A stretch of 64,000 nt of DNA from an uncultured virus (IMG/VR IMGVR_UViG_3300033066_000839) (lineage: Duplodnaviria; Heunggongvirae; Uroviricota; Caudoviricetes), in IMG/VR virus record IMGVR_UViG_3300033066_000839, one strand, 5' to 3'. A program made the translations under genes and the position numbers. Under the pieces are notes generated by a model that had not been told where the DNA came from, made no database searches, and was given only the letters and a program-made list of their open reading frames with translations. This document shows positions 23,137 through 63,993 of the stretch, piece after piece. Position 1 is the first letter of the stretch. The number at the start of each line of letters is the position of its first letter.

Positions 23137-23244
23137 ATGAAAATTACACTCAAAGACTTTCCGTACCTAATGCTGGCTACAGCAACATTTGCTGCGGCAG
23201 TGGTGTATTTTACTATACGACAAAATAATAAACAACATGGATAG
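23137..23244 (+). CDS. 35-aa membrane peptide (not in ORF track)
   Basis: MKITLKDFPYLMLATATFAAAVVYFTIRQNNKQHG. Confidence 0.55.
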   Translation: MKITLKDFPYLMLATATFAAAVVYFTIRQNNKQHG

Positions 23245-25234
23245 CATTGCAGCGGAGATACCAGCTATAGAGGGTGGAAATTATCAATTCCCTAATCCAT
23301 TTGGAAGTTTTACCAGCATTAAGGTGATGCGAGTTAATGAGCACCTGAAGCCAAGTGATGAATATTTTACTGTAGAAGTAACTGTCAGGGCTAAGCAACA
23401 AGATGGTAAAGTCCGTATACAAACAAAGCCCTTACGTACCTATCCGATTAGTGAATATGAACATTTTATGAAAGACCTTATGAATCGTGGCGATGTAACA
23501 AAATATGAAGTCGGTGGCAAAGTTGTCGGTAAAGACGGTGTATTGCCAGATGCTAAGAAAGGTGGTTTTGCCGTAGGCAGAAAACATACCGAAGGTGGCA
23601 TAAAGGGTGATGTTGCTGGCGGTGGTCCTATCGAATTTGAGAAAAATGAAGTTATTATTACCGCTCCAGCCGTACAAGACTCTACAAAGAGACAGTTTGA
23701 GGGTGAAATGCTTACCAATAAGGAAATACTATCCCGTATCAATCAATCTGGCGGTGGCGTAGCTATATTTGAGGACGGCGGCGACATAAAAGCGCATGAT
23801 TGCGGGTGTACAGGTAAGATGTACAATTACGGTGGTAAGATGATGTCCGACAACGACATTTTAAGTGATATAGCCAGCGGGGATTACAGACCAGAGTGGC
23901 AAAAACGCCAAGATGAGTATAAAAAGCAGGAAAGCGTAGCCTATAAAAAAGGTGGCGCTATCGGGTACTATCTTACGGACTTTGAGAAACATATATTGAA
24001 AAAGTTTAAGTCTGGCGGCGTAGTTAAAACAAATATTAACAGGAGCGCCCATGACAAGGTTAAGCGGCTTGAGGAATCTGGTTATGTTTATGCCGTTCCA
24101 GAGCGGGATGGTGAGTGCATGTCGGTATATGTTACCGAGCATGGCACTAACATGCTTAATGACCATGATGACAACCACTTCAATACCGATTCTGAATATG
24201 ATTGCGGGTGTGATAAGGATAAAAAATACGAGTATGGTGGTGAGGTTGAAGCCATGAAAGGGGTAAAAGTTACCTATGACAACGGCGATACCACTACTAC
24301 CAGCGTTAATCCGAATGTATCTGATGACAACATACGGGAATATTTCAAGGTAGGCTCTACGGTAAATATCGGCGATGGACCTGATGATAAGATGGTAAAA
24401 ATTACAGATGTAGAAATACTTGATAAAAAGGGTGGCAAAAAATACCAGTATTTTAAAGGCGTAAGCGCCAGCTATGATAACCAATTTCAGGTTAATAAAG
24501 CTATTGAAGAGTTGGTAGATACCGTACCTGCAAGTGACATGACAGTAGAAGAAAAAGCCTTTTTACTGTATTATAGCGGTTATGGTGGTTTAGAGAAATA
24601 CGGCGCTACTGGTAAAGGATTGTTATATGAGTATTTCACTCCGTCCGATATAGCTAAAAAAATGTGGGCTTTGGCTTACAAATACGGATATAAAGGTGGT
24701 AAAGCATTAGAGCCATCTTGCGGTATTGGTGAGTTTATACGATATGCGCCGAGTGAAAATCTGGTAACTGGATTTGAGATAAACGAATACAGCGCTAAGA
24801 TATGCCAGATACTATACCCTATGGCTACTATTATCAGAAAGGCATTTGAGACCAATTTCATTAAGAATAACAGCTCTATACGTGGTAATGTCGGGGCACT
24901 GGATAAATACAGCCTTGCTATCGGCAATCCCCCTTATGGTAGCATGGGTGGTATCTATGCTGGTATGGGTGAGAAGTCATACACCAAAAGCAATAACTAC
25001 ATTGATTATTTCATAACTCGCGGTCTTGACCTTTTAGAGAAAGACGGTCTACTGATATACATTATCGGAACTGAAGTAGCTGCTGGCGGTGTGCCGTTCC
25101 TGCAACAAAAATCAAATCCCGTAAAAACAGCCATTGCTCAAAAGGCAATATTGCTGGACGCTTACAGGTTGCCCAATGGTGTATTTGAGAGAACAGATGT
25201 ACTTACCGATATAATTGTACTTCAAAAAAAATAG
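23237..25234 (+). CDS. Modular protein with C-terminal DarB-like N6-adenine DNA methyltransferase
   Basis: YSGYGGL, EYFTP, LEPSCGIGEF, IGNPPY, RLPNGVF..T.VLTDI; N-terminal half carries repeated xxxGG motifs; start revised. Confidence 0.85.
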   Translation: MDSIAAEIPAIEGGNYQFPNPFGSFTSIKVMRVNEHLKPSDEYFTVEVTVRAKQQDGKVRIQTKPLRTYPISEYEHFMKDLMNRGDVTKYEVGGKVVGKDGVLPDAKKGGFAVGRKHTEGGIKGDVAGGGPIEFEKNEVIITAPAVQDSTKRQFEGEMLTNKEILSRINQSGGGVAIFEDGGDIKAHDCGCTGKMYNYGGKMMSDNDILSDIASGDYRPEWQKRQDEYKKQESVAYKKGGAIGYYLTDFEKHILKKFKSGGVVKTNINRSAHDKVKRLEESGYVYAVPERDGECMSVYVTEHGTNMLNDHDDNHFNTDSEYDCGCDKDKKYEYGGEVEAMKGVKVTYDNGDTTTTSVNPNVSDDNIREYFKVGSTVNIGDGPDDKMVKITDVEILDKKGGKKYQYFKGVSASYDNQFQVNKAIEELVDTVPASDMTVEEKAFLLYYSGYGGLEKYGATGKGLLYEYFTPSDIAKKMWALAYKYGYKGGKALEPSCGIGEFIRYAPSENLVTGFEINEYSAKICQILYPMATIIRKAFETNFIKNNSSIRGNVGALDKYSLAIGNPPYGSMGGIYAGMGEKSYTKSNNYIDYFITRGLDLLEKDGLLIYIIGTEVAAGGVPFLQQKSNPVKTAIAQKAILLDAYRLPNGVFERTDVLTDIIVLQKK

Positions 25235-25469: not shown

Positions 25470-28400
25470 ATGGCATACGATATTATAAACGATACCGATG
25501 TAGAAGTTTTGGAAGATACTACGGTTGAGCAAGTCTCAATCGGAGTGGATTTATTTTCCAATGATGAGTTCTTCAAAATGCACCCCGATAAAATATTGGG
25601 AGAGGCATACAAAACATCTGGCAGGTTTGGAGAGGTTACTAAATACAGGGGGGATATAACAGCGTTGTCTTTAATTGACGCGGATGAAAGTTTTATTGGT
25701 GCTGACAAGGCGTTGATAGACCCTTTGGCTTCTAATTTTAACGATGTAAATACCGATGCGGCTGGATTACAGCCAGAGGTAGCAAAGGTTATTGAACAGG
25801 CAATTTCTCAATCCGATAACGAGGTAGAGGGCACAAAAAAGAAACGTGCTAGGAAAATAGAGATTGAGGATGAAGGTGTAGTAACACCACAGGCGGAGAC
25901 ACTTTCCTTCTATGACGTTTATAATGCTTATAACAAGGACATAAGTATTGAGGAACTCAAAGTATACGTTTGGAATAAAACAGCCATAGGTAAGCCGCTA
26001 AGTAAGTATTATGTCTCCATATTCGACCCAGAGCGCTTTGATGCTGACGAGGATTTAAGGGAGACCTACAATTATACCGTATCGCAGGAAACAATAGATG
26101 AGTGGGTATCTCATGGATTGCTTTTCTATTTTAAAGGTAAGCTCATACCAGCGTATGAATACCTAAGCGGTAACATGTACGATAAAAAAATACAACTTCA
26201 ACATGATAAGGAGAGTATTATCGCCAAGTTTGGTACGGAGGCGTTTGAAAAACAGGAGACCTCAATTACGGAGGCGTTTAGAAAAATATATGAAAAAAGG
26301 TTAACCATTGGTGGCGCTAACGGGTTAGTTGTATTGCCAATCAGTAAGTTTGCTGCGGACTTTAAAATATCACGTATTGAGGAGCTCCCCGAAGAGATGC
26401 CTTTTAAGATAAAGCGTGTAACGGCAGCTTCCGATAGCAAGTACGGGCAACCCGATATACTCAATGATGATAAGGTTTATAGTGACCGTGACAGGCATAG
26501 TTTTGAGGAGCTAAGCCTGCGTGATGCGTTTAATTTCTGGTTGATAAAGTATAAGCCGCAATTAAAGCAACCGATTACCCACTATGATATAGTGAAATAC
26601 TATGTGCTGCAATCTGCTATACGCATAGACTATGACGCAGAGGATAGTAATTCTAAGAAAGCAGCAGAAGCGAAGCGTGAGAAGCTAAAATCATCCACGC
26701 AAGCCGAAGGGGAACGCCTGTTCTCAATATTCCTTGAAACACAGCTATTGCCTAATGATAAGATAAGGCTGGAAACACAATGGAATAGCGATTATAACAA
26801 CTTTTTACCGTTTGACCCTAACAAGATACCCGTAGCCTTTACAATGGCTAAGTATGTGGGTGGTAAGCTCGAAGAACTGCGCCCAGAAAAAAGGGAGGCA
26901 GTGGCTTTCGTAATGAATAACGGTACTGGCGTACTGGCGTATGACGTAGGGGTTGGTAAAACACCTTCTACCATATTTACTATATCCGCGTTTTTAGATG
27001 CTGGATATTGTAAGCGCCCGCTTATCGTAGTGCCTAACCAAGTGTATAAGCAATTTATCAGTGAGATAAAGATGTTTGCACCTCATATACCTATCATCGA
27101 GGGCTACAACTTGTCAAAGGAATATGTTGAAAATTTCATCGGCTCAAATGGACAGGTAGAATCTTCACCATCGGGCAGTATTACTGTAATGACATACGAA
27201 GGTATGGAGTTAATAGGTTTTACCGATGCTACCCGTGACAGAATGCTTAGTAAGCTATATGATATACTCAATCAGGGTGGCGCTTCAGAGCAAGCAAGCG
27301 GTAAGAAAGGTGAGAAGCAAAAAGCCTCTTTCTTAGAGCGCCTTGAAATGCTGGTAGGTAAGGGTATGCGCGGCGGTATGTACAACATTGAGGATTTCGG
27401 TTTTGACTTTATCACTTATGACGAAGCACATAAGATGAAAAAAGTATTTACCAGCGTTAAGGGCACAGCCGAAGAGGACAAAAAATCAGGTAAGGTTTCC
27501 AGAGGTAAAAATCCATATGTTATCAGTAGCGGTACACCTTCAAGCATAGGTTTGAAAGGGTTTATGCTCAATCAGTATATACTGGAACAAAACAACTATA
27601 AAAACATACTGCTGTTAACGGCTACTCCATTTACCAACTCACCATTGGAGATATTCTCCATGATGTCTATGGTAGCTTATGAGCAACTACGTGAAACAGA
27701 CCTTTACAACATTAAAAACTTCTTTGATACTTACATTAAAACAAGTACCGAATTAGTTATCAATACCAAGTTAAAACCTCAATTTAAACAGGTTATACTT
27801 GGGTTCAATAACCTTATATCGCTGCAATCGTTGATTCGCAGGTATATCCTGTATAAGACGGGTGAAGATGTCGGGGTATTGCGACCTAAAAAATATGTAT
27901 TGCCTTACGTAAAGGTTATCGAAGACGGCATATTAATGCAACTGCCAGAAGATAAGCGTGTAGAGACCTACATAGAAATGACACCATTGCAAAAGCGCAT
28001 GATGGATAGTGTTATTGCGTATGTTGAGAATGGTACTCCGCTTACGGATTCGTATGAAGGAACAAAGGACGAGGGTGATATTGACGAAGAAAATGAAGAT
28101 ACCACAGAAGGTATAGAAGTAGATGAAGATGCACTCGATAGTAACCAGAAAGCAGGTGTAAGGACTATTCGCGGTCTTGCTTTCAGCCGCAATATTGCAC
28201 TAAGCCCGTATTTATATGATTATTCGGGATTAGGAGACCCTACAGCGCATGAATACATTACAACGAGCCCTAAGCTCACCTATGTGATGCAATGCGTTAA
28301 AAGCGTCCGTAATTACTGTATCGCTAACGGTCAACCCGTAGCAGGTCAAGTTATATACATGGATAGGGGTATTGAATATTTCAAGCTCATCAAAGAATAC

Positions 28401-30914
28401 CTTGTAAACCAAGTAGGCTATAAAGAGCATGAGGTAGGCATTATTGTAAGCGGTTTGCCTAAGAACGGACCACGTAGCAAAGAATATGTAAAAAACCTAT
28501 TCAACGGGGAGGTATACAACGAAAAAACAAAAGAGTTTGAGGCGGTATCGGATGAGCAGCGTATAAAAGTGGTTATAGGTAGCTCTACTATTAAAGAGGG
28601 TATCAACCTGCAAAAATACGGAGCGGTGCTATACAACTGCTTTATAGACTGGAATCCTACGGATATACAGCAGCTCGAAGGACGTATATACAGGCAGAAA
28701 AATACATTTGATGCGGTGCGTATTGTTAATCCACTGGTGGTTGACAGTGCTGATATATTTATGTTCCAAAAATTACAGGAGAAAACAACACGCCTGAATA
28801 CTATCTGGAGCACGGATGGTAAGACCAACGTATTGCATACCGAAGAGTTTAACCCAGAAGAGCTGAAATATGCGCTGGTTAGAGACCCGCGTGTTATTGC
28901 GGAACTCAAAACCATAGAAGAGCGCTCAAAACTCGATGCGGAAAAGCTCGGATATGAAAGACAGCTTGAAATAGCGGATAATGTGTCTTCTTCAGCACAT
29001 GAGGTCAATTATTATTTTGACAAGGCTATTGATGCACTCAAAGATTACCGTGACTTTAAAAAGACCGATGACAGGCTTGCCGATGCTGAAAGGCTGGTAA
29101 AACTCATCAACGAGGCAGAAAAGAAACAAACGGATAAAGACGGTAAGAAAATATATATGCGCTATGAGCTTAGCGAACTTACCGATAAAGAGCGAGAAGC
29201 GGCATCTCCATTATCCCGTCCTTTTACAAAACCATATTGGTTTAGTTACTTTTCAGTAGCTACCCGCGACATGAGCAGGTTTATGTCTTCTTTTATCAAA
29301 CCGTACAATATTGAGTTTGACATTTTACATTATGAAGATGCCCTGAAGTTATTTAAAGAGGCGGCTACTAAAAAAATAGCGGAGATAACGGAGGCTAAGA
29401 ATAACCTTGACTCCAAAGAGCGCATGGATAGGCTGGTGCAGGAAATTATCGAAGAGCGGGAACGCCTCAAGATTGAATTTAAGCCACTGCCACAGACCGT
29501 TAATGATTTTTCCAGACTTAACTACTTATTAGACAAAAAAGTAGTGATATTAACACCTGCGTTGCCGAAATACACAACTTGTCCACCACTTGAGCAAGAT
29601 GGTAAGCCAGCCATAACCGCAGACGGGTTAAAGGCATTGGAGGGCTGTTTGAAGCATGAGAACCAGACAAAGGACGTTTATTACAACGAAGAGACACATA
29701 CTTATACGCCAGAACGTGAAAAGCTACATCAGGAAATAGTAGATAAGCTATTCGATGGTGTAAAATGTGTTACTAAGAAAAAACCTGTTGCAATATTTAC
29801 GGGTGGTGCTCCCGCCAGTGGTAAGTCTACATTCCTGAAAAAACATGCGCCGTATCTACTTAGTCATGATATATTCCATCTTGACGCAGATGAAATAAGA
29901 GCCATGTTGCCCGAATACAAGGGCTGGAATGCCAACTCTACCCACTTGGAAACACAGGATATAGTAAACGGGTTGCTTGATAAGCTCGGTAGTGAGGGTT
30001 GCCGTTATGATTTTGTGTATGACGGCACTATGAATAAGGCAAAGAAATACTTTGACCTGATACGCCGAGTAAAGGATATGGGTTATGAAACGTATATCAT
30101 ATTCATGGAAGTGCCCTATGCCGAAGCTAAAAAGCGTGCTATAGGACGTTATGAGCATACGGGAAGGTATGTGCCGATGGACGTAATAGATGATTTCTTT
30201 ACTGAAATAAACGGTAAAACAAAAGGACAGGCGGCTCTGGATGAATTAAAGCCGCTTGTAGACGGTTATATCGTTGCCGATGGTATTACAGGGAATGTGA
30301 TAAATAAAGGCGGCGCTGCGCTCCCTAAGACCCGTAACGGGGTGTATGGTGGTGATGTGCACGCTCCTGAAATAGCAGAAGAGCCAGAAGAACAGCGTTA
30401 TGAAGATATGGAACTTGACGACTTGATTAAGTTGTATAAGGAGAAATATTCAAACATTGACATATCTGAACCTAAGTCACCTGACGAGAAAGAGATGGAA
30501 AGGGTTATTTCATTAAAGCATAGTGATATATTTACTAAAATTCGTGAAGAAAGGAAGCGCATCATGGATAAGTATGAAAGTATGAGCCTTGATGACTTAA
30601 TTAAGGCAAAAAATGATATACGCAGCGGTGAAGGTACGTCACAAGTTATTTCTCATGAGGAGAAAGTGCTTGACGGGCTTATTTTCCGTAAGACTAGAGA
30701 GCTAAATAAGCAAGCCTCCAAAAAAAATAAGCAACAAAAGCATCCTGTTTCGGCGGCAGTGTCTGAAGAGTCGGGAGACATAACAAAAGAAAAAATAGAA
30801 AAATTAATAAAAGCACTAAATTTGAGCCTTAAATTCACTTCTGAAGAGGAGGATAAAAACAGAATAGGCAAGCAGATAAAAGCGCTTAATCTATCTTTAA
30901 AATTTGCAGCATGA
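25470..30914 (+). CDS. DarB-like SNF2/SF2 helicase with C-terminal zeta-toxin-like P-loop kinase domain
   Basis: YDVGVGKT, DEAH, TATP, EGINLQ, WNPTDIQQLEGRIYRQ; then FTGGAPASGKST, DADEIRAMLPEY, YDGT. Confidence 0.85.
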   Translation: MAYDIINDTDVEVLEDTTVEQVSIGVDLFSNDEFFKMHPDKILGEAYKTSGRFGEVTKYRGDITALSLIDADESFIGADKALIDPLASNFNDVNTDAAGLQPEVAKVIEQAISQSDNEVEGTKKKRARKIEIEDEGVVTPQAETLSFYDVYNAYNKDISIEELKVYVWNKTAIGKPLSKYYVSIFDPERFDADEDLRETYNYTVSQETIDEWVSHGLLFYFKGKLIPAYEYLSGNMYDKKIQLQHDKESIIAKFGTEAFEKQETSITEAFRKIYEKRLTIGGANGLVVLPISKFAADFKISRIEELPEEMPFKIKRVTAASDSKYGQPDILNDDKVYSDRDRHSFEELSLRDAFNFWLIKYKPQLKQPITHYDIVKYYVLQSAIRIDYDAEDSNSKKAAEAKREKLKSSTQAEGERLFSIFLETQLLPNDKIRLETQWNSDYNNFLPFDPNKIPVAFTMAKYVGGKLEELRPEKREAVAFVMNNGTGVLAYDVGVGKTPSTIFTISAFLDAGYCKRPLIVVPNQVYKQFISEIKMFAPHIPIIEGYNLSKEYVENFIGSNGQVESSPSGSITVMTYEGMELIGFTDATRDRMLSKLYDILNQGGASEQASGKKGEKQKASFLERLEMLVGKGMRGGMYNIEDFGFDFITYDEAHKMKKVFTSVKGTAEEDKKSGKVSRGKNPYVISSGTPSSIGLKGFMLNQYILEQNNYKNILLLTATPFTNSPLEIFSMMSMVAYEQLRETDLYNIKNFFDTYIKTSTELVINTKLKPQFKQVILGFNNLISLQSLIRRYILYKTGEDVGVLRPKKYVLPYVKVIEDGILMQLPEDKRVETYIEMTPLQKRMMDSVIAYVENGTPLTDSYEGTKDEGDIDEENEDTTEGIEVDEDALDSNQKAGVRTIRGLAFSRNIALSPYLYDYSGLGDPTAHEYITTSPKLTYVMQCVKSVRNYCIANGQPVAGQVIYMDRGIEYFKLIKEYLVNQVGYKEHEVGIIVSGLPKNGPRSKEYVKNLFNGEVYNEKTKEFEAVSDEQRIKVVIGSSTIKEGINLQKYGAVLYNCFIDWNPTDIQQLEGRIYRQKNTFDAVRIVNPLVVDSADIFMFQKLQEKTTRLNTIWSTDGKTNVLHTEEFNPEELKYALVRDPRVIAELKTIEERSKLDAEKLGYERQLEIADNVSSSAHEVNYYFDKAIDALKDYRDFKKTDDRLADAERLVKLINEAEKKQTDKDGKKIYMRYELSELTDKEREAASPLSRPFTKPYWFSYFSVATRDMSRFMSSFIKPYNIEFDILHYEDALKLFKEAATKKIAEITEAKNNLDSKERMDRLVQEIIEERERLKIEFKPLPQTVNDFSRLNYLLDKKVVILTPALPKYTTCPPLEQDGKPAITADGLKALEGCLKHENQTKDVYYNEETHTYTPEREKLHQEIVDKLFDGVKCVTKKKPVAIFTGGAPASGKSTFLKKHAPYLLSHDIFHLDADEIRAMLPEYKGWNANSTHLETQDIVNGLLDKLGSEGCRYDFVYDGTMNKAKKYFDLIRRVKDMGYETYIIFMEVPYAEAKKRAIGRYEHTGRYVPMDVIDDFFTEINGKTKGQAALDELKPLVDGYIVADGITGNVINKGGAALPKTRNGVYGGDVHAPEIAEEPEEQRYEDMELDDLIKLYKEKYSNIDISEPKSPDEKEMERVISLKHSDIFTKIREERKRIMDKYESMSLDDLIKAKNDIRSGEGTSQVISHEEKVLDGLIFRKTRELNKQASKKNKQQKHPVSAAVSEESGDITKEKIEKLIKALNLSLKFTSEEEDKNRIGKQIKALNLSLKFAA

Positions 30915-33229
30915 AATTAGCACAGCTCAAGCAAGACATAGCGGATATGGAGTCGGTTTATAATGATTCCACTACGCCAGCCAATATAAAAGAATCCATA
31001 GGACCTGCTCTTAAAAAAGCACGGGCACAGCTTGCAGAAGCCGATAAGGGTAGCCATTCTTCTGGCAAGTCGGCGCATGTAAAAAAAGCACCTGCCACAA
31101 AGGGTAAAAGTACAACCCCGCGTGAAAAGTCAACACGCCCGAAAGCTACTGTCAGCAGTGCTATGAAGTTGGCACAGAAATACCGTAAAGAGCAAGGATT
31201 GAGCACTAAGAAATCTGATATAGAACGCGATGCCAAACGCAGCTCTAAGCCCGCTGGTAAGCGTGTATCTGAATCTGGTAATGTTTATTATGAGAACAGA
31301 GAAAATAGAACAGACAGGCTGGCTAAGAAATATCCGAAGCTGGCAAAAGGTGGTGAGGTAAATATGAATAAAGACTGGAAAGTAATTTATATTACTACAG
31401 ATGGCGCTAAAGGGGAGAAAATAATTACGCTTGGTGAGGTAAATGAGGATTTAAAACGAGCAATAAAGAAAATGAAAGGTCCTTCCGATGTTGGCAATAT
31501 CAAAGAGGTATTATCAATAACGCCAGTGCATGAAGACGGCGGCATGTTAGGTGATGCTACTTATAATTTCAGATTTGATATTACTAGCCCCGCATTTGAG
31601 AAGGGGGGTATGATACCAGACTGGTTATTTATAGGTACTTATCCAGCCGCCAGAGTGTATGCTGATAGGCGCAAAGAAAGTCGTGGTGAATACCATAGAA
31701 TAGGTACTGTAACATATAGTCCTCTTAGGTTAAATGTTACTGATAATAACCCTAAATATGCACATGTTATAGAATTGATGAAGGAGGATATGGAGCAGAT
31801 GCGTAAGGATGGGTATGTTGAAACTTCGTCTACTGGGCAGACCGCAAAAGTAACGGAAGTTCCAGAAATAAAAATAAATTTGGATAGCCTGAAATACGAG
31901 AAAGGGGGAATGATTGCTCACGGCTTTCATAGTGGTGATGTTATCTATGAAATATATAAAGGCTATGGTATTATTGAGCAACTAGATGGCAATAAGACAC
32001 TTGGAAATGGAATGGTAGTTGTTGTTAATCCTAATCATGGCACACGATATGTTGTTGGGTTAGATGACAGTAAATCATCTGGTAAGCGGATATACAATGA
32101 AATGCCATTTAAAGAGGCTGTTCAGGAAGCTAGGAATTATATAGACTATCTTACTGATGGAAATGGTCGTGACCTAGTTGAAATGCAGGAAACGGAGCAT
32201 TTTTCGGATAATACGCATGACACTAAGCCTGTATATAAGGACGGCGGTAAGGTTGATGCTGATAATATTATAGGCACTACGCTATATGCAAACACTGGCG
32301 TGCCACTGAAAGTTATAGACTACGATAGTCGTTTTGGTGGAAGAGTAAAGGTAAGCAGAAATGATGAGCTTTACGATGGAACTGTATCTCAATGGATGCC
32401 TATAAAAAAATTTACAACTGACAAACCTAAATTCGAGCACGGCGGTAAAACAAGTGGGCAAGAGAAATTCGAGACCAGTATTAAAGCTGTAAAAAACCAG
32501 ATAAACATGGTGCAGCTTCAAGACGGCACGTTAATTCGTGGAAGTGAGTTAAAGTTTGCTGATGGTGGTTCTCTGACAAGTAGAACTACTGTTGAAGTTG
32601 GAGAAGAACCTATAACCGTAATTATCAAGAAAAAAGAAACGACAGGCTACCCAGTATATATCAGAACGGTTGGATATGCCCCAATAACGCATAATCTTTA
32701 TCCTACAAAAGAAAAGGCATTATCTTCTGCAAAATCTTTGGCTAATAAAAATGGCTATGCTTTTAAGTTTGCTGATGGTGGTGTAACTGGCAAGTCTGGT
32801 AGTAAATTCAAAGCGCAGGTTTATGATAGCGTAGAAAATAAAAAACTTTTACATACTTATTATGCGGATAGTGAAAATGCGATAAATGAAGCTGTCGGCG
32901 ATATTGACGCATATGTCAAGTTCTACGAAAAAAGAAAAGGCAAGTACAACAATTATGGTATTCAGCTATATAAAAAAGGCGGCTCTACATTTGCCGATAA
33001 AGTAAGTGCTATAGCTGATAAACTATCAGGGACAACAGTAGCAGCAAAGTACAAAAAAAAGTACGGCAGCAAATACAGCCCTGCGGAGGCAAAAGAGGCA
33101 GCAACTAAGATAGTTGGTAAGATGGTATCTAAAAGCGGAGAAATGGTAAAGAAGGGCGGCAGGAAAGTCAAGAAGGTAATGTCAAAGACAGGTAAGGCAC
33201 TAACTGGCAAGTACGGAACAAAAAAGTAA
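30911..33229 (+). CDS. Basic, modular putative virion cargo protein punctuated by [FYLH]xxGG motifs
   Basis: Lys-rich ends; nine or more xxxGG motifs; GKRVSESGNVYYENRENRTD module. Confidence 0.7.
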   Translation: MKLAQLKQDIADMESVYNDSTTPANIKESIGPALKKARAQLAEADKGSHSSGKSAHVKKAPATKGKSTTPREKSTRPKATVSSAMKLAQKYRKEQGLSTKKSDIERDAKRSSKPAGKRVSESGNVYYENRENRTDRLAKKYPKLAKGGEVNMNKDWKVIYITTDGAKGEKIITLGEVNEDLKRAIKKMKGPSDVGNIKEVLSITPVHEDGGMLGDATYNFRFDITSPAFEKGGMIPDWLFIGTYPAARVYADRRKESRGEYHRIGTVTYSPLRLNVTDNNPKYAHVIELMKEDMEQMRKDGYVETSSTGQTAKVTEVPEIKINLDSLKYEKGGMIAHGFHSGDVIYEIYKGYGIIEQLDGNKTLGNGMVVVVNPNHGTRYVVGLDDSKSSGKRIYNEMPFKEAVQEARNYIDYLTDGNGRDLVEMQETEHFSDNTHDTKPVYKDGGKVDADNIIGTTLYANTGVPLKVIDYDSRFGGRVKVSRNDELYDGTVSQWMPIKKFTTDKPKFEHGGKTSGQEKFETSIKAVKNQINMVQLQDGTLIRGSELKFADGGSLTSRTTVEVGEEPITVIIKKKETTGYPVYIRTVGYAPITHNLYPTKEKALSSAKSLANKNGYAFKFADGGVTGKSGSKFKAQVYDSVENKKLLHTYYADSENAINEAVGDIDAYVKFYEKRKGKYNNYGIQLYKKGGSTFADKVSAIADKLSGTTVAAKYKKKYGSKYSPAEAKEAATKIVGKMVSKSGEMVKKGGRKVKKVMSKTGKALTGKYGTKK

Positions 33230-36902: not shown

Positions 36903-37115
36903 ATGCAAAAAATAATATTCATTGATGAGACGGGCGCTCCTCATAATGGTTATATAGACCAGACAGGGGATAGTAGTAATTCTACAGACCTTATCAAAGA
37001 TGACCGTAAAAATAACCTCAAAGAGCATTTGTATATAACATACCTTGTTTTTGGTACGCTTGCATTTGCCTTTGGTATATACATAAGTGTACGAAGATTA
37101 AAAGCTACTAAATAA
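36903..37115 (+). CDS. Small protein with C-terminal TM
   Basis: Hydrophobic C-terminus with basic tail. Confidence 0.65.
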   Translation: MQKIIFIDETGAPHNGYIDQTGDSSNSTDLIKDDRKNNLKEHLYITYLVFGTLAFAFGIYISVRRLKATK

Positions 37116-37477
37116 TGGATAACGGCTCACCATCAATACCAGTTCCAGACGGTGTACAGGTTACTAGCCCTGCGCCCGCTGCTCCAGTTGCACAAGCTGC
37201 ACCTGCGGAAGCGGCTGCGCCCGTACAACAGCCTATGCCAGATATGTCAGCTAAGGACGGCGGCAGTACAAATAGCTTTAATGATTTTATTAAGTCTATA
37301 AATTGGTTGGAAGCGGGTTTTGCTATACTTGGTGCTGTAGGGTTATATTATACCGTATATTATTATCGTTATAAGCTAAAAGAAGACAGGGTTGCTAACA
37401 GCGATACCCAACGTCAGATTGATGAGATAAAAATGAATGTACAAAGTGCTATGAAAGGAAAGTATCAGGCACTATAA
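37115..37477 (+). CDS. Membrane protein with Pro/Ala-rich N-terminus
   Basis: Central TM; TAATG coupling. Confidence 0.65.
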   Translation: MDNGSPSIPVPDGVQVTSPAPAAPVAQAAPAEAAAPVQQPMPDMSAKDGGSTNSFNDFIKSINWLEAGFAILGAVGLYYTVYYYRYKLKEDRVANSDTQRQIDEIKMNVQSAMKGKYQAL

Positions 37478-37491
37478 AGTGATAAAACCAT

Positions 37492-38139
37492 ATGCTTATA
37501 AACGAGCTTGTTCAAGGTAACGCCAATAGAGAGGAGTTATTATTGTTGCAGTCGGAAAGCTATTTAGACCAGTGCTTTACCGAGTTAACGCATTATTTGT
37601 TCCCGCCTAATGATTCAGAAACTACGAAAGCAGAGCTGAATGAATTAGTAGGCATGACAGAAGAGTTATTTCAGGACCAGAAGAGCACAAAACGCTTTAT
37701 GAATTATGATACCTCTTTAGGTGTGATAATGGTTAAATACCTTATGAGACGCGGTATAGAGCAGAAGGAAGCAGAGCCGCTGGTATCTGCGATGTTACGT
37801 GATATAGACCCGCTTATAGGTAAGCTCAAATTTTACTTTCAACGCCCGCGACCTAATGTGTTGGCGCATTACATGAGATTGAAGCTGATACCTTTCTTTT
37901 CTTTAACAGGTAGCAGCCCCAGTTATCCTAGCGGTCATGCCGTGCAAGCAAAATTCTTTGCCGAAATTATCGGTAATAAATATCCTAAGCTATATAAAGA
38001 TGTGCACGCATTCGCAGATGATGTATGTATGTCAAGGCTATTCATGGGTGTACATTATCAAAGCGATATTGACTACGCATCACTGGTAGTAGACCATGCA
38101 ATGAAAGTACAGGAGCTAAAATTAAAATACCAGATATGA
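37492..38139 (+). CDS. PAP2/vanadium-haloperoxidase-family phosphatase
   Basis: KFYFQRPRP, SYPSGHA, SRLFMGVHYQSD. Confidence 0.85.
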   Translation: MLINELVQGNANREELLLLQSESYLDQCFTELTHYLFPPNDSETTKAELNELVGMTEELFQDQKSTKRFMNYDTSLGVIMVKYLMRRGIEQKEAEPLVSAMLRDIDPLIGKLKFYFQRPRPNVLAHYMRLKLIPFFSLTGSSPSYPSGHAVQAKFFAEIIGNKYPKLYKDVHAFADDVCMSRLFMGVHYQSDIDYASLVVDHAMKVQELKLKYQI

Positions 38140-40658: not shown

Positions 40659-41516
40659 ATGGCAAGGGAGTGTAAAGTTATAGTCGCCGTAGGTAAAAAG
40701 GGCGTAGGTAAAACTGTAGCTACGATAGAAATGATATATCAGTATGTTACTGGTAATATGGCTAAAGGCGTACCCCCGCGTAAAGCATTGATATTTGATG
40801 TTAATGATGAGTTTGGCTCATTCTGGTTTCATGGTGCGACACATTCTATACCATCACTAGCCATTAAAGACATACCGTTATTCAGCGTGCACCCTAAAAT
40901 AGAAGTACGTAGAATAAGACCTTTTTGGGATGACGGCAGAAAGATGAGTATTGATGATATGGCGCAGGTGCTAGGCATCATACTGGATAATTACCGTAAT
41001 GGTTTATTGCTTGTAGAAGATATTAACAAGTATTCGAGTGATACACCTAAAAAAGATTTAGTGTCTGCCCTTGCCACAGTGCGCCACATAGGTATAGACC
41101 TTATTGCACACTATCAAAGCGTTGGTAGACCTGCCAATCCAAAGCTATTAGGTAACATATCATTCATACGGATGCACAAAACGAATGATAGTGTAGCGCG
41201 TCATAAAAATAAATTTGAAGACAGGACAGAGATACTAATGATTGGTGAGGCTATTGTAGCTAATAGATATAATGGAGGCGATAAACGGTATTACTTGTAT
41301 GTTGATATTGACGAGAGTAAAATACTTAGCGCTAAGGGCAACTTCACTGATGAGGAAGTAAATGCAGCCATAGAAGATTATATCAGTAAGAACCACAACA
41401 ATCTTGTAAAGCCACTGCTTAATAAATACGATTTAGTGAATAATCAAAAGATTTATACCCCTGTTACCGCCATAGAACAGGTGCGTAAAGAACTGAAGGA
41501 AAAGTATTTCCAATAA
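40659..41516 (+). CDS. Genome packaging ATPase, FtsK-HerA superfamily (P9/A32-like)
   Basis: Walker A GKKGVGKT at N-terminus, Walker B LLLVED, RH-x-Q signature RHIGIDLIAHYQ; about 285 aa; no nuclease domain. Confidence 0.8.
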   Translation: MARECKVIVAVGKKGVGKTVATIEMIYQYVTGNMAKGVPPRKALIFDVNDEFGSFWFHGATHSIPSLAIKDIPLFSVHPKIEVRRIRPFWDDGRKMSIDDMAQVLGIILDNYRNGLLLVEDINKYSSDTPKKDLVSALATVRHIGIDLIAHYQSVGRPANPKLLGNISFIRMHKTNDSVARHKNKFEDRTEILMIGEAIVANRYNGGDKRYYLYVDIDESKILSAKGNFTDEEVNAAIEDYISKNHNNLVKPLLNKYDLVNNQKIYTPVTAIEQVRKELKEKYFQ

Positions 41517-41855: not shown

Positions 41856-42593
41856 ATGTCACATATTAAGAAATACTTACAAAACAACCTGAATTTCGCG
41901 AATGAGTCATTCGCAAACGCGGACGGTTTCATTGATGACGACTTGCAGTTTACTGCGGGTGAAGATTTCATGAATGCTGGTGGTGGTGAGCAAGGAATGG
42001 GTTATAGCCCAGCTCCGACATCACAGCCGTACATCATAACTGTATCAAACGTGTCTGCCGTTGCGGTAGCTAACTTTGACGTTCTGGGTGCGTACCAATA
42101 CCTGCAAAATACAGGCTTCACTTCTGGTTCACTGTCTATCAGTGGTGTTACAATCAGCTCTGCTATCAGTAACATTACATACCAAGAGTTCCTGTATCAA
42201 TCAATGAACTCACCTTTCTCTGTAGGTCTTACTTACATCGAAAGCGTATCTGGTTCAACTTCACAGGTATCTCAAACCATCACAGTGAACACTCGTGATG
42301 CGAACGGTAACCAAGCGTTGAAAACGCTCGTGCCAACCATTGACCCATACCAGCAACAATCTGGTATCATAGCCATGAAGCAAGGCTATCGTATAGACGG
42401 TTTCACAAAACTGACTATCGCAAGCGTTCTTGCATCGGCTGTGTTCCGTCTTCACTTCTACCCTGCTGACAACATCAATATTGCTCGCGGTCTTGCATCT
42501 CGTCCAGTATCTCGTCAGTACGGCAACCCGAACATTGTTCGTAGTTCCGTTCAGGTTATCGGTGGCGACACAGTGAAAGCACGCTTAGGCTAG
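41856..42593 (+). CDS. Candidate major capsid protein (beta-rich, single jelly-roll sized)
   Basis: Follows packaging ATPase; own promoter and terminator; codons biased to AAC/TTC/ATC/GGT; beta-strand-like pattern; paralogue at 56898. Confidence 0.65.
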   Translation: MSHIKKYLQNNLNFANESFANADGFIDDDLQFTAGEDFMNAGGGEQGMGYSPAPTSQPYIITVSNVSAVAVANFDVLGAYQYLQNTGFTSGSLSISGVTISSAISNITYQEFLYQSMNSPFSVGLTYIESVSGSTSQVSQTITVNTRDANGNQALKTLVPTIDPYQQQSGIIAMKQGYRIDGFTKLTIASVLASAVFRLHFYPADNINIARGLASRPVSRQYGNPNIVRSSVQVIGGDTVKARLG

Positions 42594-45362: not shown

Positions 45363-46157
45363 ATGAATATCAGAATACCAACTAACTATGAAGAGTTTAC
45401 GCTAGCCGTAACGGTTAAATCAGCAACGGGGCGACCAGAGTGTATACACATTACGCTCAAGGACAACACGATGCCTAATACCGTATTTACGGACAGGTAC
45501 AAGACTATCATGGATGAGTTTACATTCTATGTTCGTATGCCAGTGAGCGGTAAGAGCGCGGAATTGATAATTTATAACGAGCGCACGGGGAATATACCCT
45601 CTAAGAGTGACAGCACTTTTGAGGTGGTTAATATATCCAAGCAGCCGTTACAAAAGAAAATGGACGTAGTGGACTTCAACAATCCAGTAATACGCTCCTT
45701 TATCAATTTTTCGACACGTTTCTGCTTTAATGCTGGCGTTCTTACCAGTGGTGAGTATGTATCTGATGATGGTAAGTTTAAGATAAACTATACACCTACT
45801 ATCCTTAGTAAACGTACCAATACCGAAATGAATACCCCAGCTCGTATAAGCAAGACGACTGGTATTATTCAGATAGCACAAAAGAAATTCGTGCCTATGA
45901 CTATACCAATGCGTATGGCTATACTGATGCATGAGTTCAGTCACTATTATGTCAATGATGATATTAATAATGAGATTGAAGCGGACCTTAACGGGTTATT
46001 GATATACTTGGGTCTTGGTTATCCGAGAATTGAGGCATATCAGGCATTTTTAGGAACATTTGTCGGTACGCCTACACTTGAAAATAAAAAGCGTGCTGAT
46101 TTGATAGACAGGTTTATAAGGGATTATGAAAAAAACAATTTAGTATTCAATGGTTAG
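45363..46157 (+). CDS. Zinc metalloprotease (HExxH), candidate maturation protease
   Basis: AILMHEFSH...EIEAD. Confidence 0.75.
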   Translation: MNIRIPTNYEEFTLAVTVKSATGRPECIHITLKDNTMPNTVFTDRYKTIMDEFTFYVRMPVSGKSAELIIYNERTGNIPSKSDSTFEVVNISKQPLQKKMDVVDFNNPVIRSFINFSTRFCFNAGVLTSGEYVSDDGKFKINYTPTILSKRTNTEMNTPARISKTTGIIQIAQKKFVPMTIPMRMAILMHEFSHYYVNDDINNEIEADLNGLLIYLGLGYPRIEAYQAFLGTFVGTPTLENKKRADLIDRFIRDYEKNNLVFNG

Positions 46158-56897: not shown

Positions 56898-57386
56898 ATG
56901 CCATCTATCACACCAACAGTTACAGTACAGACTACGCCAGCAATCAGCGTAACTACGGTATCATCGCCACCATATGCACAGGTAAGGCGTAGTTTGGGTG
57001 ATTATGTTTTCAGGACGTTTATGTTCTATCTTGCCTCTGCCAATTTCAACCAACTGGCGGGGATATATCTTTATACTAAGTATGATTCAAATGGTACGAA
57101 GACCAGCGGCAACCTGATACCATTTGTTTCCCCGTTTCAAAAACAGAAAACCCTTTATTTCGATGTTTCGAGCCAACCTGTTATAATAGACGGGCGCAAT
57201 ATGTTCCAGTTTACCATGCTGCCTAATACGACACTGCAATTTAAAATGTATAGCATACAGGATAGCGTAGGGCAGTTTGTAAAACCTGACGGTAAACCCG
57301 CTTTAGTGCAAAATAACTTCAAGTTTTTCGAGACGGCTACTGGTAATTTTAATTTCTTTGACGATTTTAAAGGTAAATTGCCATGA
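56898..57386 (+). CDS. Paralogue of the capsid candidate core (minor capsid protein)
   Basis: Aligns by eye with 41856: DSNG/DANG, LIP..SPFQKQ/LVP..DPYQQQ, IIDG/RIDG. Confidence 0.65.
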   Translation: MPSITPTVTVQTTPAISVTTVSSPPYAQVRRSLGDYVFRTFMFYLASANFNQLAGIYLYTKYDSNGTKTSGNLIPFVSPFQKQKTLYFDVSSQPVIIDGRNMFQFTMLPNTTLQFKMYSIQDSVGQFVKPDGKPALVQNNFKFFETATGNFNFFDDFKGKLP

Positions 57387-58117
57387 TGACCGAAGAAATG
57401 AAACGGCAGCTATCCGAGATTAGCTTTACCATCGTTAACAATACAAGTAGCAATGTGCCCATGAACTTTTTGGGTAACTTGGCTAATACGGCGGATATAA
57501 GCAATCAGTTAACAGAATACAAATGGGACGTTACAGGCATTTTGTTTGCCGCATATGATACCGTTACCGTACAAGTGCGCGGCGCGGGCAGCAGTTTGCC
57601 ATTTACGACACTTTCTGCCACTATACCTATTAAGACTATTCAGGGGGCTCTCGATGCTTTAAACAGCCTGAATGTGGCTTGTTTCTTCAGTAGCACCTCT
57701 GGCGGCAATACATATATTGAAACGTATAATGATAATACCGAGTTCGGGGATATTGATTTCAGCAGTAGTACGGGATATAGTACATGGTTTTTAGGCTACA
57801 GGGGTTCGTATGCTGGCACTGGCGGTTCGTGGAATATTGAGAATCCGACACCTACTGTTATTTATACAGGCTCATTCCCTGTGGTGCAAAGTCCTTATGT
57901 GGATATATCGGCTTATCTGAATTACAGCTCTAACCAGATTACTTTTAATTGTGTGGCTGGCAGCCTTACCATGAATATGGCAATATACCGACTTGATTTG
58001 GCTACTAATACAGAAACGCTGATAAACTCGGTTACAGGTATATTGTCTGGAAACTCCGCTAGTATAGGACCTATTACGGCTGCTGCGGGGTATGTGTATA
58101 TTATTGATTTTTCTTAG
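57383..58117 (+). CDS. Beta-rich structural protein (spike/vertex candidate)
   Basis: N-terminal FTIVNNTSSNVPMNFLG resembles capsid ITVSNVSAVAVANFDVLG. Confidence 0.55.
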   Translation: MMTEEMKRQLSEISFTIVNNTSSNVPMNFLGNLANTADISNQLTEYKWDVTGILFAAYDTVTVQVRGAGSSLPFTTLSATIPIKTIQGALDALNSLNVACFFSSTSGGNTYIETYNDNTEFGDIDFSSSTGYSTWFLGYRGSYAGTGGSWNIENPTPTVIYTGSFPVVQSPYVDISAYLNYSSNQITFNCVAGSLTMNMAIYRLDLATNTETLINSVTGILSGNSASIGPITAAAGYVYIIDFS

Positions 58118-63234: not shown

Positions 63235-63993
63235 TCAGGTTTGTGCCTGTGGCGCTTTTACTTTTGTGAGGTGCTTACAATCCATACCAAGCTCATTAAA
63301 GAACTCCGCCACACGCTCCCTGTTCTTTTTGGTATCACGGTAGTAAATGCAATCCGTTCTATAGGCGTAGAAATCCCCTCCAAGCATCATTTTACATGCC
63401 TGCATCATTTTATAGCATTCATACCGTACTTTACGGTAACAGGCTACCAGCATCGGGTCTGGTTCTATTTTTAGTATGTTATCAGTGATGACTCCGTTTT
63501 TGATAATCTTATACTCTTTACTGCTACCGATGGCAGCTAATGCTGCTAACCGTGTGGTCTTGTGGTCTCCCTTCATACCGTGATTATAGGTATTCTCGCT
63601 AATGATACCGAATAGGTATGCTATGCGCCAGTATGCTGCTGTAAGGTCCGTAGCCGCAAGAGGAGAGCTGATATGCTGATATTCGTAGTTGGTCTCGTTG
63701 GTAGGGTAGCGCTTTGATACTCTGATAGTCTTTTTACCTTCACAGTATTTTTTTGCATCGCGTTTTACCATTCCAAACAGGAATAGTCCGCGTTGCGCTT
63801 TCTTAGATACGTTTTTACCCTGAAACCTGAAGCTGCGTTTCTCATATACAAGTTCGTTAGCAAAGTTAGCTACGCGGTAGTACCCGTTTAACTTGTTCTG
63901 CTTTATAAAGTCCAGCATCATTTGTTCACGGTGCTTAGGCTGAAACTCTGTTTGATTTGCCAGCTTGCGTTTGCGTAGTATTATTTGAGCCAT
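63235..63993 (-). CDS. Minimal family-B DNA polymerase-like protein (palm/fingers only)
   Basis: Motif A-like TDLTAAYW, motif B-like K..RLAALAAIG, motif C-like YRTDCIYY. Confidence 0.6.
   Translation of the reverse strand: MAQIILRKRKLANQTEFQPKHREQMMLDFIKQNKLNGYYRVANFANELVYEKRSFRFQGKNVSKKAQRGLFLFGMVKRDAKKYCEGKKTIRVSKRYPTNETNYEYQHISSPLAATDLTAAYWRIAYLFGIISENTYNHGMKGDHKTTRLAALAAIGSSKEYKIIKNGVITDNILKIEPDPMLVACYRKVRYECYKMMQACKMMLGGDFYAYRTDCIYYRDTKKNRERVAEFFNELGMDCKHLTKVKAPQAQT

Follow-up and report, generated by a model that had tools for sequence, protein, structure and literature searches.

Polyproteins are processed at Gly-Gly by the proteases adenain of adenovirus and S273R of African swine fever virus (ASFV), and in phage T4 the capsid targeting sequence (CTS) is a single N-terminal tag that is removed by the prohead protease. 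In the available portion of the source, this sequence is given as the only one common to the T4 internal proteins (PMC3012670). Phage polyvalent proteins, as the accessible part of another study describes them, are mosaics of ArdA, LPD11, ART-PolyVal, RelA/SpoT, and DarA_C modules adjoining DarB-like methylase/helicase genes, mostly in phages with a portal-terminase system; their processing by zincins has been proposed and that of P1 DdrB cited (Iyer et al., PMC5512222). Here we analyze P0001, a polyvalent cargo protein of 772 residues encoded at 30911–33229 (plus strand, as are the other features unless stated) of a 64,000-nucleotide stretch from an uncultured virus (IMG/VR record IMGVR_UViG_3300033066_000839), the whole of which we call the window. 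Proteins of the P0001 type show the same mosaic beside the same kind of genes, but no junction motif is described in that part of the polyvalent-protein study, whereas here a short peptide, the xxGG motif, stands at the module joints; in place of the portal and terminase found in most of those phages, this virus encodes an ATPase and a capsid candidate of the jelly-roll type, and its zincin is, unlike in the polyvalent proteins, a separate core gene. Like the T4 CTS, the xxGG motif is one short peptide common to otherwise unrelated cargo (anti-defense proteins in T4), but it is internal, tandem, and C-terminal and occurs 12–55 times per genome. With the adenain and S273R sites it shares Gly-Gly and an upstream hydrophobic residue in a putative jelly-roll virus; those systems, however, use an Ulp1-type protease, which was not detected among the core genes here, while in our case the host is probably bacterial, a downstream hydrophobic residue is needed, and the motif is found at protein ends too.

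The start codon of P0001 overlaps the stop of the upstream gene for a 1,814-residue DarB-like helicase. All nine motif copies listed in the preliminary description are present, starting at residues 144 (LAKGGEV, 31340–31360), 207 (HEDGGML, 31529–31549), 229 (FEKGGMI, 31595–31615), 329 (YEKGGMI, 31895–31915), 442 (YKDGGKV, 32234–32254), 508 (FEHGGKT, 32432–32452), 549 (FADGGSL, 32555–32575), 620 (FADGGVT, 32768–32788), and 687 (YKKGGST, 32969–32989), while the GG pairs at 476 and 749 are not motifs. They separate eight internal, swappable blocks of 22–113 residues from an N-terminal block of 148 and a C-terminal block of 81 residues, both conserved and basic, each with an isoelectric point of 10.2. 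Residues 96–143 (31196–31339), before motif 1, form a family signature with invariant columns among homologs, and the basic C-terminal block (residues 692–772, 32984–33226) is preceded by a motif in 20/20 matching homologs. The delimiter had been written as [FY]xxGG, which fits seven of the nine copies; LAKGG and HEDGG start with neither residue, and the motif runs past GG, as the second residue after it is V, L, I, T, or M in all nine. The seven copies compare with a mean of 0.53 and a maximum of 5 in shuffled sequences (0/20,000 shuffles reach 7), whereas GG alone is not significantly enriched (11 vs. 7.0; 1,555/20,000 shuffles reach 11), so the signal in P0001 lies in the whole motif. The pattern was chosen after the sequence had been seen, and its independent recurrence is given by the 5–19 copies in each of 50 non-identical homologs.

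To see the motif across the lineage we compared 22 genomes, namely the window and 21 fetched records, three of them not quite whole. In 56 motif-rich proteins, 553 of 823 GG runs have F, Y, M, or L three places upstream, against a background of 19%, and about 89% of family copies have V, L, I, T, or M as the second residue behind GG; the unit thus reaches both sides of GG, and the real unit is [FYML]-[AEK]-[KDN]-G-G-x-[VLITM]. This set had been filtered by removing proteins with many GGG or spike-type repeats, three true members among them, and wrongly retains one fibre-like window protein. Pro never directly follows GG in 571 copies. Tandem copies are spaced 6 residues apart 50 times and 10 residues apart 31 times, every one of the 22 genomes has one to six motif-rich genes, and the richest protein carries 33 motifs. 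A scan for DNA that encodes the motif in tandem yielded 38 loci; the majority belong to this lineage, and several to what we judged by eye to be tailed phages. In five of the latter (L127, L138, L144, L156, and L159), tiny basic proteins consisting mainly of tandem M/Y-x-x-GG adjoin head genes. A literature search in which subscription papers were thinly covered yielded no description of motif or lineage, nor does the accessible part of PMC5894146 contain one; the cargo motif is real, family-wide, and apparently unpublished.

Homologs of P0001 swap their middle modules at the motif, and the preliminary description was right that the blocks are dissimilar and their content is not colinear. A search with P0001 found 51 homologs; one is an identical fragment, and no single alignment of any other spans more than 50% of P0001. 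Close homologs retain the N-terminal block and, in most cases, the basic block at the C-terminus, and their internal modules differ in content and order. Wherever a P0001 block was matched from its start, the motif stood directly upstream (52/52 cases), and in 50 of the 52 the 15 residues before that motif were unrelated; block 625–691 has no non-identical homolog. A natural relative, one contig from a freshwater run aligned at 85% likeness, lacks 31604–31903, which is exactly one module, in frame; motifs 3 and 4 mark the left and right edges of this 300-nucleotide module, and 11 letters at the junction fit either side. Four of ten loose ends inside the P0001 open reading frame (ORF) lie within 7 nucleotides of a motif Gly codon, as does this internal deletion. 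Family-wide, 1,042 modules of 106 proteins fall into 372 families with a median motif spacing of 60 residues. In a Pfam scan of 30 of 44 motif-rich proteins within single loci, with four redundant overlapping families removed from the domain matches, the motif was inside a domain match in 2/37 cases, whereas 2,000 random placements averaged 18.5 such cases and never gave fewer than 10. At a free N-terminus no motif precedes the module in 5/7 proteins, which assigns the motif to the C-terminal end of the module. No single continuous fold was seen either, the Atlas model of P0001 having a predicted template modeling score (pTM) of 0.23, in itself weak evidence. The modules that Pfam names in relatives include ArdA, LPD11, ART-PolyVal, RelA/SpoT, Zeta kinase, DarA_C, GNAT, and several DUFs, and the first four types identify P0001-like proteins as polyvalent cargo proteins, in keeping with the cargo content first suggested. 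P0001's own modules are unnamed: neither the protein nor its separate blocks matched anything in Pfam, PHROG, or NCBIfam, and Atlas gave no usable match for the protein. The stand-alone, motif-free homologs that had been expected of these modules did not turn up, all seven shorter matches being motif-bearing multi-module proteins.

The motif also occurs where there is no joint to mark. It ends 29 of 2,406 ORFs, against 2.0 expected, and all 14 members of one family of about 300 residues terminate 2–3 residues after GG. Mean identity among the 11 core members of this family is 32%, and the terminal GG makes up two of its five invariant columns. The gene stands directly upstream of a PolB-like gene in 12/14 genomes and at most three genes from it in the remaining two, usually close to a contig end, so it may encode a terminal protein; both this label and that of the PolB-like gene are ones we assume from motifs and position. 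In the window the PolB-like gene (252 residues, 63235–63993, minus strand; 17/22 genomes) comes without an exonuclease part, and the motif-ending gene found upstream of it in relatives would lie beyond the window end. No database match was found for either protein, including the Pfam and PDB searches with the PolB-like protein, and PDB profile searches with both families returned nothing useful. In stand-alone kinase genes, the motif follows a leader of 11–12 residues.

Outside the lineage, two kinds of tailed phages bear on the motif. A second client gene at 23237–25234 has six or seven motifs (by pattern) in its N-terminal half, fused to a DarB-like N6-methyltransferase, and contains a motif-flanked companion domain (23513–23860 with flanks) that is present as one copy in 19/22 genomes and was found in 1,716 cluster representatives. 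Several GG turns within this domain look like the motif. It shares homology with the domain that forms the C-terminal part of tape-measure proteins in Bacteroidota siphophages such as Elizabethkingia phage TCUEAP1 (hhalign 99.1%, E 7e-19; 97% in another comparison; all 93 and 84 cross-searches significant). In those tail proteins the motif occurs once or twice, close to the end, compared with the cargo strings here. Neither domain gave anything useful in PDB profile searches, and the companion domain has no Pfam match, crAss_CARG1 (PF25725) included. We also considered that it might be a protease, which was left unsupported by a poor AlphaFold model (predicted local distance difference test, pLDDT, 58; pTM 0.33) without a fold match. 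The other case is gp45 of crAss001 (PF25725), like P0001 a protein with related motifs, and an ejected cargo as P0001 would be, but of a tailed podophage: A-x-G-G motifs surround its modules, and one of these motifs opens its portal-bound domain. In the part of the structural study available, the portal-bound part of this cargo protein, C1/gp45, is modeled as residues 425–552 in the mature virion (PMC10172136). This segment begins A-F-G-G-W-L, so the copy at 425–430 appears uncut after GG.

We tentatively favor, at slightly less than an even chance, the reading that the motif is a loading or ejection handle on packaged cargo. On this view the virus is a tailless jelly-roll phage that would make P0001 late and package it in the virion as polyvalent cargo; the basic ends of P0001 probably bind DNA or core, and its middle would be a cassette string of small host-takeover or anti-defense modules. 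The motif at the C-terminal end of each module would serve as a protein-level handle recognized at the packaging or ejection vertex by some component of the virion, and each module might thus be loaded or threaded out by its own grip; the tandem spacings of 6 and 10 residues suit avidity. One copy could make any protein cargo, the terminal-protein candidate included. With similar DNA at all joints, recombination between the codons of different motifs could add, remove, or reorder whole modules without loss of frame. Cleavage once the cargo is loaded is possible, as in the T4 tag, although it would not be required; handle and cut are compatible, since the T4 tag is both. That P0001 is probably packaged we deduce from the position of its gene between DarB-like, lysin, and capsid genes. 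The handle reading draws on the module matches that begin right at a motif, the scarcity of motifs inside Pfam domains, the copies at free protein ends, the conservation flanking GG, the seemingly uncut crAss001 copy, the motif-bearing tailed phages without a zincin match, and the precedent of the T4 tag. Several points weigh against a handle. It need not sit at nearly every joint, as a cut site must; a zincin belongs to the core in 21/22 genomes; modules at a free N-terminus lack a motif before them in the five of seven proteins mentioned; and the reader of the motif and its place, like the packaging of P0001, are deduced and not observed. The crAss001 evidence concerns one site with a variant motif in another phage, where a cut just before A425 would still fit, and the companion domain aligns with the portal-bound domain in the same register at a non-significant level (hhalign probability 5–8%, P 0.005–0.007). 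Finally, among three distant homologs of the 300-residue family two keep the terminal motif and one (G036) is without it.

The preliminary description had proposed a polyprotein cleaved at GG. In a version of this model with another enzyme, the motif would be a cut site for the core zincin or a host protease, which would free about ten small modules at maturation or after entry. We regard this as a real possibility, if a somewhat improbable one. Part of the proposal stands: the motif is placed at domain borders at the spacing given above, conservation extends to both sides of GG with no Pro directly following, and there is a candidate enzyme. A zincin-type HExxH...E metallopeptidase is encoded at 45363–46157 and is the only protease candidate among the core genes; its family has five invariant residues (H190, E191, H194, E204, and E206), and its Atlas model is confident (pTM 0.88) and leads to M48/M78-type peptidases, while a PDB profile search gave nothing useful. 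Zincin processing is also what the accessible text on polyvalent proteins proposes, citing P1 DdrB (PMC5512222), and the leader before the motif of the stand-alone kinases resembles a removable tag. Nevertheless, a cut at the terminal copies would free just 2–3 residues, and the crAss gp45 copy at 425–430 lies inside the modeled segment. The zincin profile, positive in 5/5 carriers, matched nothing in the motif-bearing tailed phages crAss001 and TCUEAP1. As to the parallel drawn with the adenovirus and ASFV proteases, it found no counterpart: among the 64 families present in at least 8/22 genomes, with the window itself a partial genome, no adenain-type (Ulp1) His/Cys protease was detected, though a rare or strongly divergent enzyme may have escaped this comparison. 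Both His and Cys are conserved in one family of small membrane proteins and in nuclease-like, sulfotransferase-like, and LRAT-like families, all labeled by eye. The LRAT-like one (L080:16780–17250 and relatives) occurs in 8/22 genomes and is not in the window.

The zincin gene, moreover, stands among capsid and membrane genes that bear a second signal, [FY]xNAxG, and these are equally plausible substrates. The two signals are distinct, as had been claimed: there are 74 xxGG proteins and 84 xNAxG proteins, and one is common to both. xNAxG proteins are mostly small membrane proteins encoded within 10 kb downstream of the capsid gene, whereas xxGG proteins are large, soluble, and encoded upstream of it; a hydrophobic stretch is present in 52/84 of the former vs. 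6/74 of the latter. We therefore rejected the idea of both motifs being one protease site, given that the clients barely overlap and differ in membrane content and position. The xNAxG motif is found in the N-terminal region of the capsid candidate in 18/22 genomes. In the window, the xNAxG proteins between 41856 and 51447, which comprise the capsid candidate and the small membrane proteins of the morphogenesis block, form a plausible set of zincin substrates. A 350-residue protein of another locus (L122:1750–2799, G023) has xxGG followed directly by an NA/NS-x-G motif, twice.

It is unlikely, in our judgment, that the motif is merely a structural joint, a turn, hinge, or self-associating strand linking unrelated domains, copied by recombination and needing no dedicated reader. 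The GG turns of the companion domain are what one would expect of such an element, recombination at motif DNA was seen, and biased codons suggest copying between joints; yet this leaves unexplained the invariant terminal copies that join nothing, as well as the copies that occur singly, be it behind short leaders or in a family of small membrane proteins (15/19). Very improbable is an anchoring of the ubiquitin or sortase kind, in which a cut exposes a C-terminal Gly-Gly, or transpeptidation occurs, and the module is attached to lipid, capsid protein, or a host target: terminal copies followed by 2–3 residues do resemble ubiquitin-type precursors, but no E1/E2-like or sortase-like gene was recognized among the core families, and the modules have no common fold or family. 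An integron-like DNA cassette site, of which the motif would be a translation without protein function, we likewise consider hardly probable, because, despite biased motif codons (Ala GCT 78% vs. 44% in matched context; first Gly GGA 9% vs. 22%) and the loose ends and deletion near motif Gly codons, the second Gly has background codon usage, conservation follows residue chemistry (F/Y/M/L; V/L/I/T/M), and the four Gly codons all used in the P0001 gene, together with 437 different 15-mers among the 571 copies, point to selection on the peptide. The codon bias is in line with joints being copied and recombining with one another, a process that accounts for in-frame shuffling without a DNA site.

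A wider extension of the handle reading is that one address code, along with the companion anchor domain, is common to virus realms and marks the cargo strings and genome-linked terminal protein of a tailless jelly-roll phage, the crassvirus cargo, and the C-termini of tape-measure proteins; we think this rather unlikely. If it were true, the shared code would define what passes through vertex or tail, with one grip per folded module, and the companion domain would be a vertex anchor if the crAss link is real. Such a code might also mark the cleavage site of the lambda tape-measure protein gpH, in which two copies close to the consensus start at 733 and 778. By computation, cleavage behind G737 would yield pieces of 80.1 and 12.2 kDa, while the accessible part of one report gives a piece of about 14 kDa, with cleavage site and enzyme unknown (PMC12617516). 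The motif as gpH cleavage site is a lead only, and homology of the companion domain to gpH was rejected, as none was detected at the sensitivity used. Still, the link to tape-measure C-termini offers a testable guess on the long-open question of gpH processing. How phages choose and deliver injected proteins is understood for few of them, and a seven-residue tag offers a rule by which cargo can be predicted from sequence and large proteins without annotation divided into their real domains. The module families, mostly unnamed, are candidates for anti-defense functions, and the tag, if portable, could become a means to load phage particles with proteins. What we add to the systems described is the tailless lineage, the terminal motif copies, and the tape-measure link.

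The lineage was recognized through its capsid candidate. This putative major capsid protein (41856–42593) matched 43 loci in viral contigs, and P0001 matches 25/34 of their records; P0001 alone matched no locus in viral contigs, and neither protein had a match among isolated phages. Its single jelly-roll model has a beta-sandwich at residues 59–203 with pLDDT mostly above 80, after 55 low-confidence N-terminal residues that carry two [FY]xNAxG motifs. In a fold search the best Z was 5.5, and the chain of PR772 scored Z 5.4 (rmsd, root-mean-square deviation, 3.3 over 98 aligned residues), with viral jelly rolls tied with unrelated proteins; the model thus makes a tailless single-jelly-roll phage likely but falls short of proof. 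The core genes also include those for many small membrane proteins, the HExxH peptidase, and a P-loop ATPase (40659–41516; 22/22 genomes), a candidate packaging ATPase judging by its position. PDB profile searches with the capsid candidate and the ATPase gave nothing useful, and no portal or terminase was matched among the window proteins scanned (30 and 24 of 124 ORFs). Inverted terminal repeats are present in three records, and genome size in the lineage is 60–130 kb. Lysins among the window genes indicate a bacterial host, and the hosts are probably Bacteroidota; five of ten matches in a genome collection fall in Bacteroidota bins, possibly as co-binned viral contigs. The group of tailless phages is probably undescribed.

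Several other genes of the window deserve mention. Between 23237 and 30914, the DarB-like methyltransferase and the SNF2 helicase are split into separate genes with a 74-residue ORF between them. The helicase gene (25470–30914) has no regular motif series and is fused to a Zeta-type kinase module, which in four relatives is a motif-flanked stand-alone gene. A small membrane protein (37115–37477) has one degenerate copy, AKDGGST, before a hydrophobic helix and by eye looks like a family found in 19 relatives; in 15 of them the motif stands at this place. A PAP2-family phosphatase (37492–38139), unusual for a phage, is a core gene in 22/22 genomes. Finally, two genes at 56898–58117 resemble capsid paralogs or vertex proteins, and the one at 56898 clusters with the capsid family.

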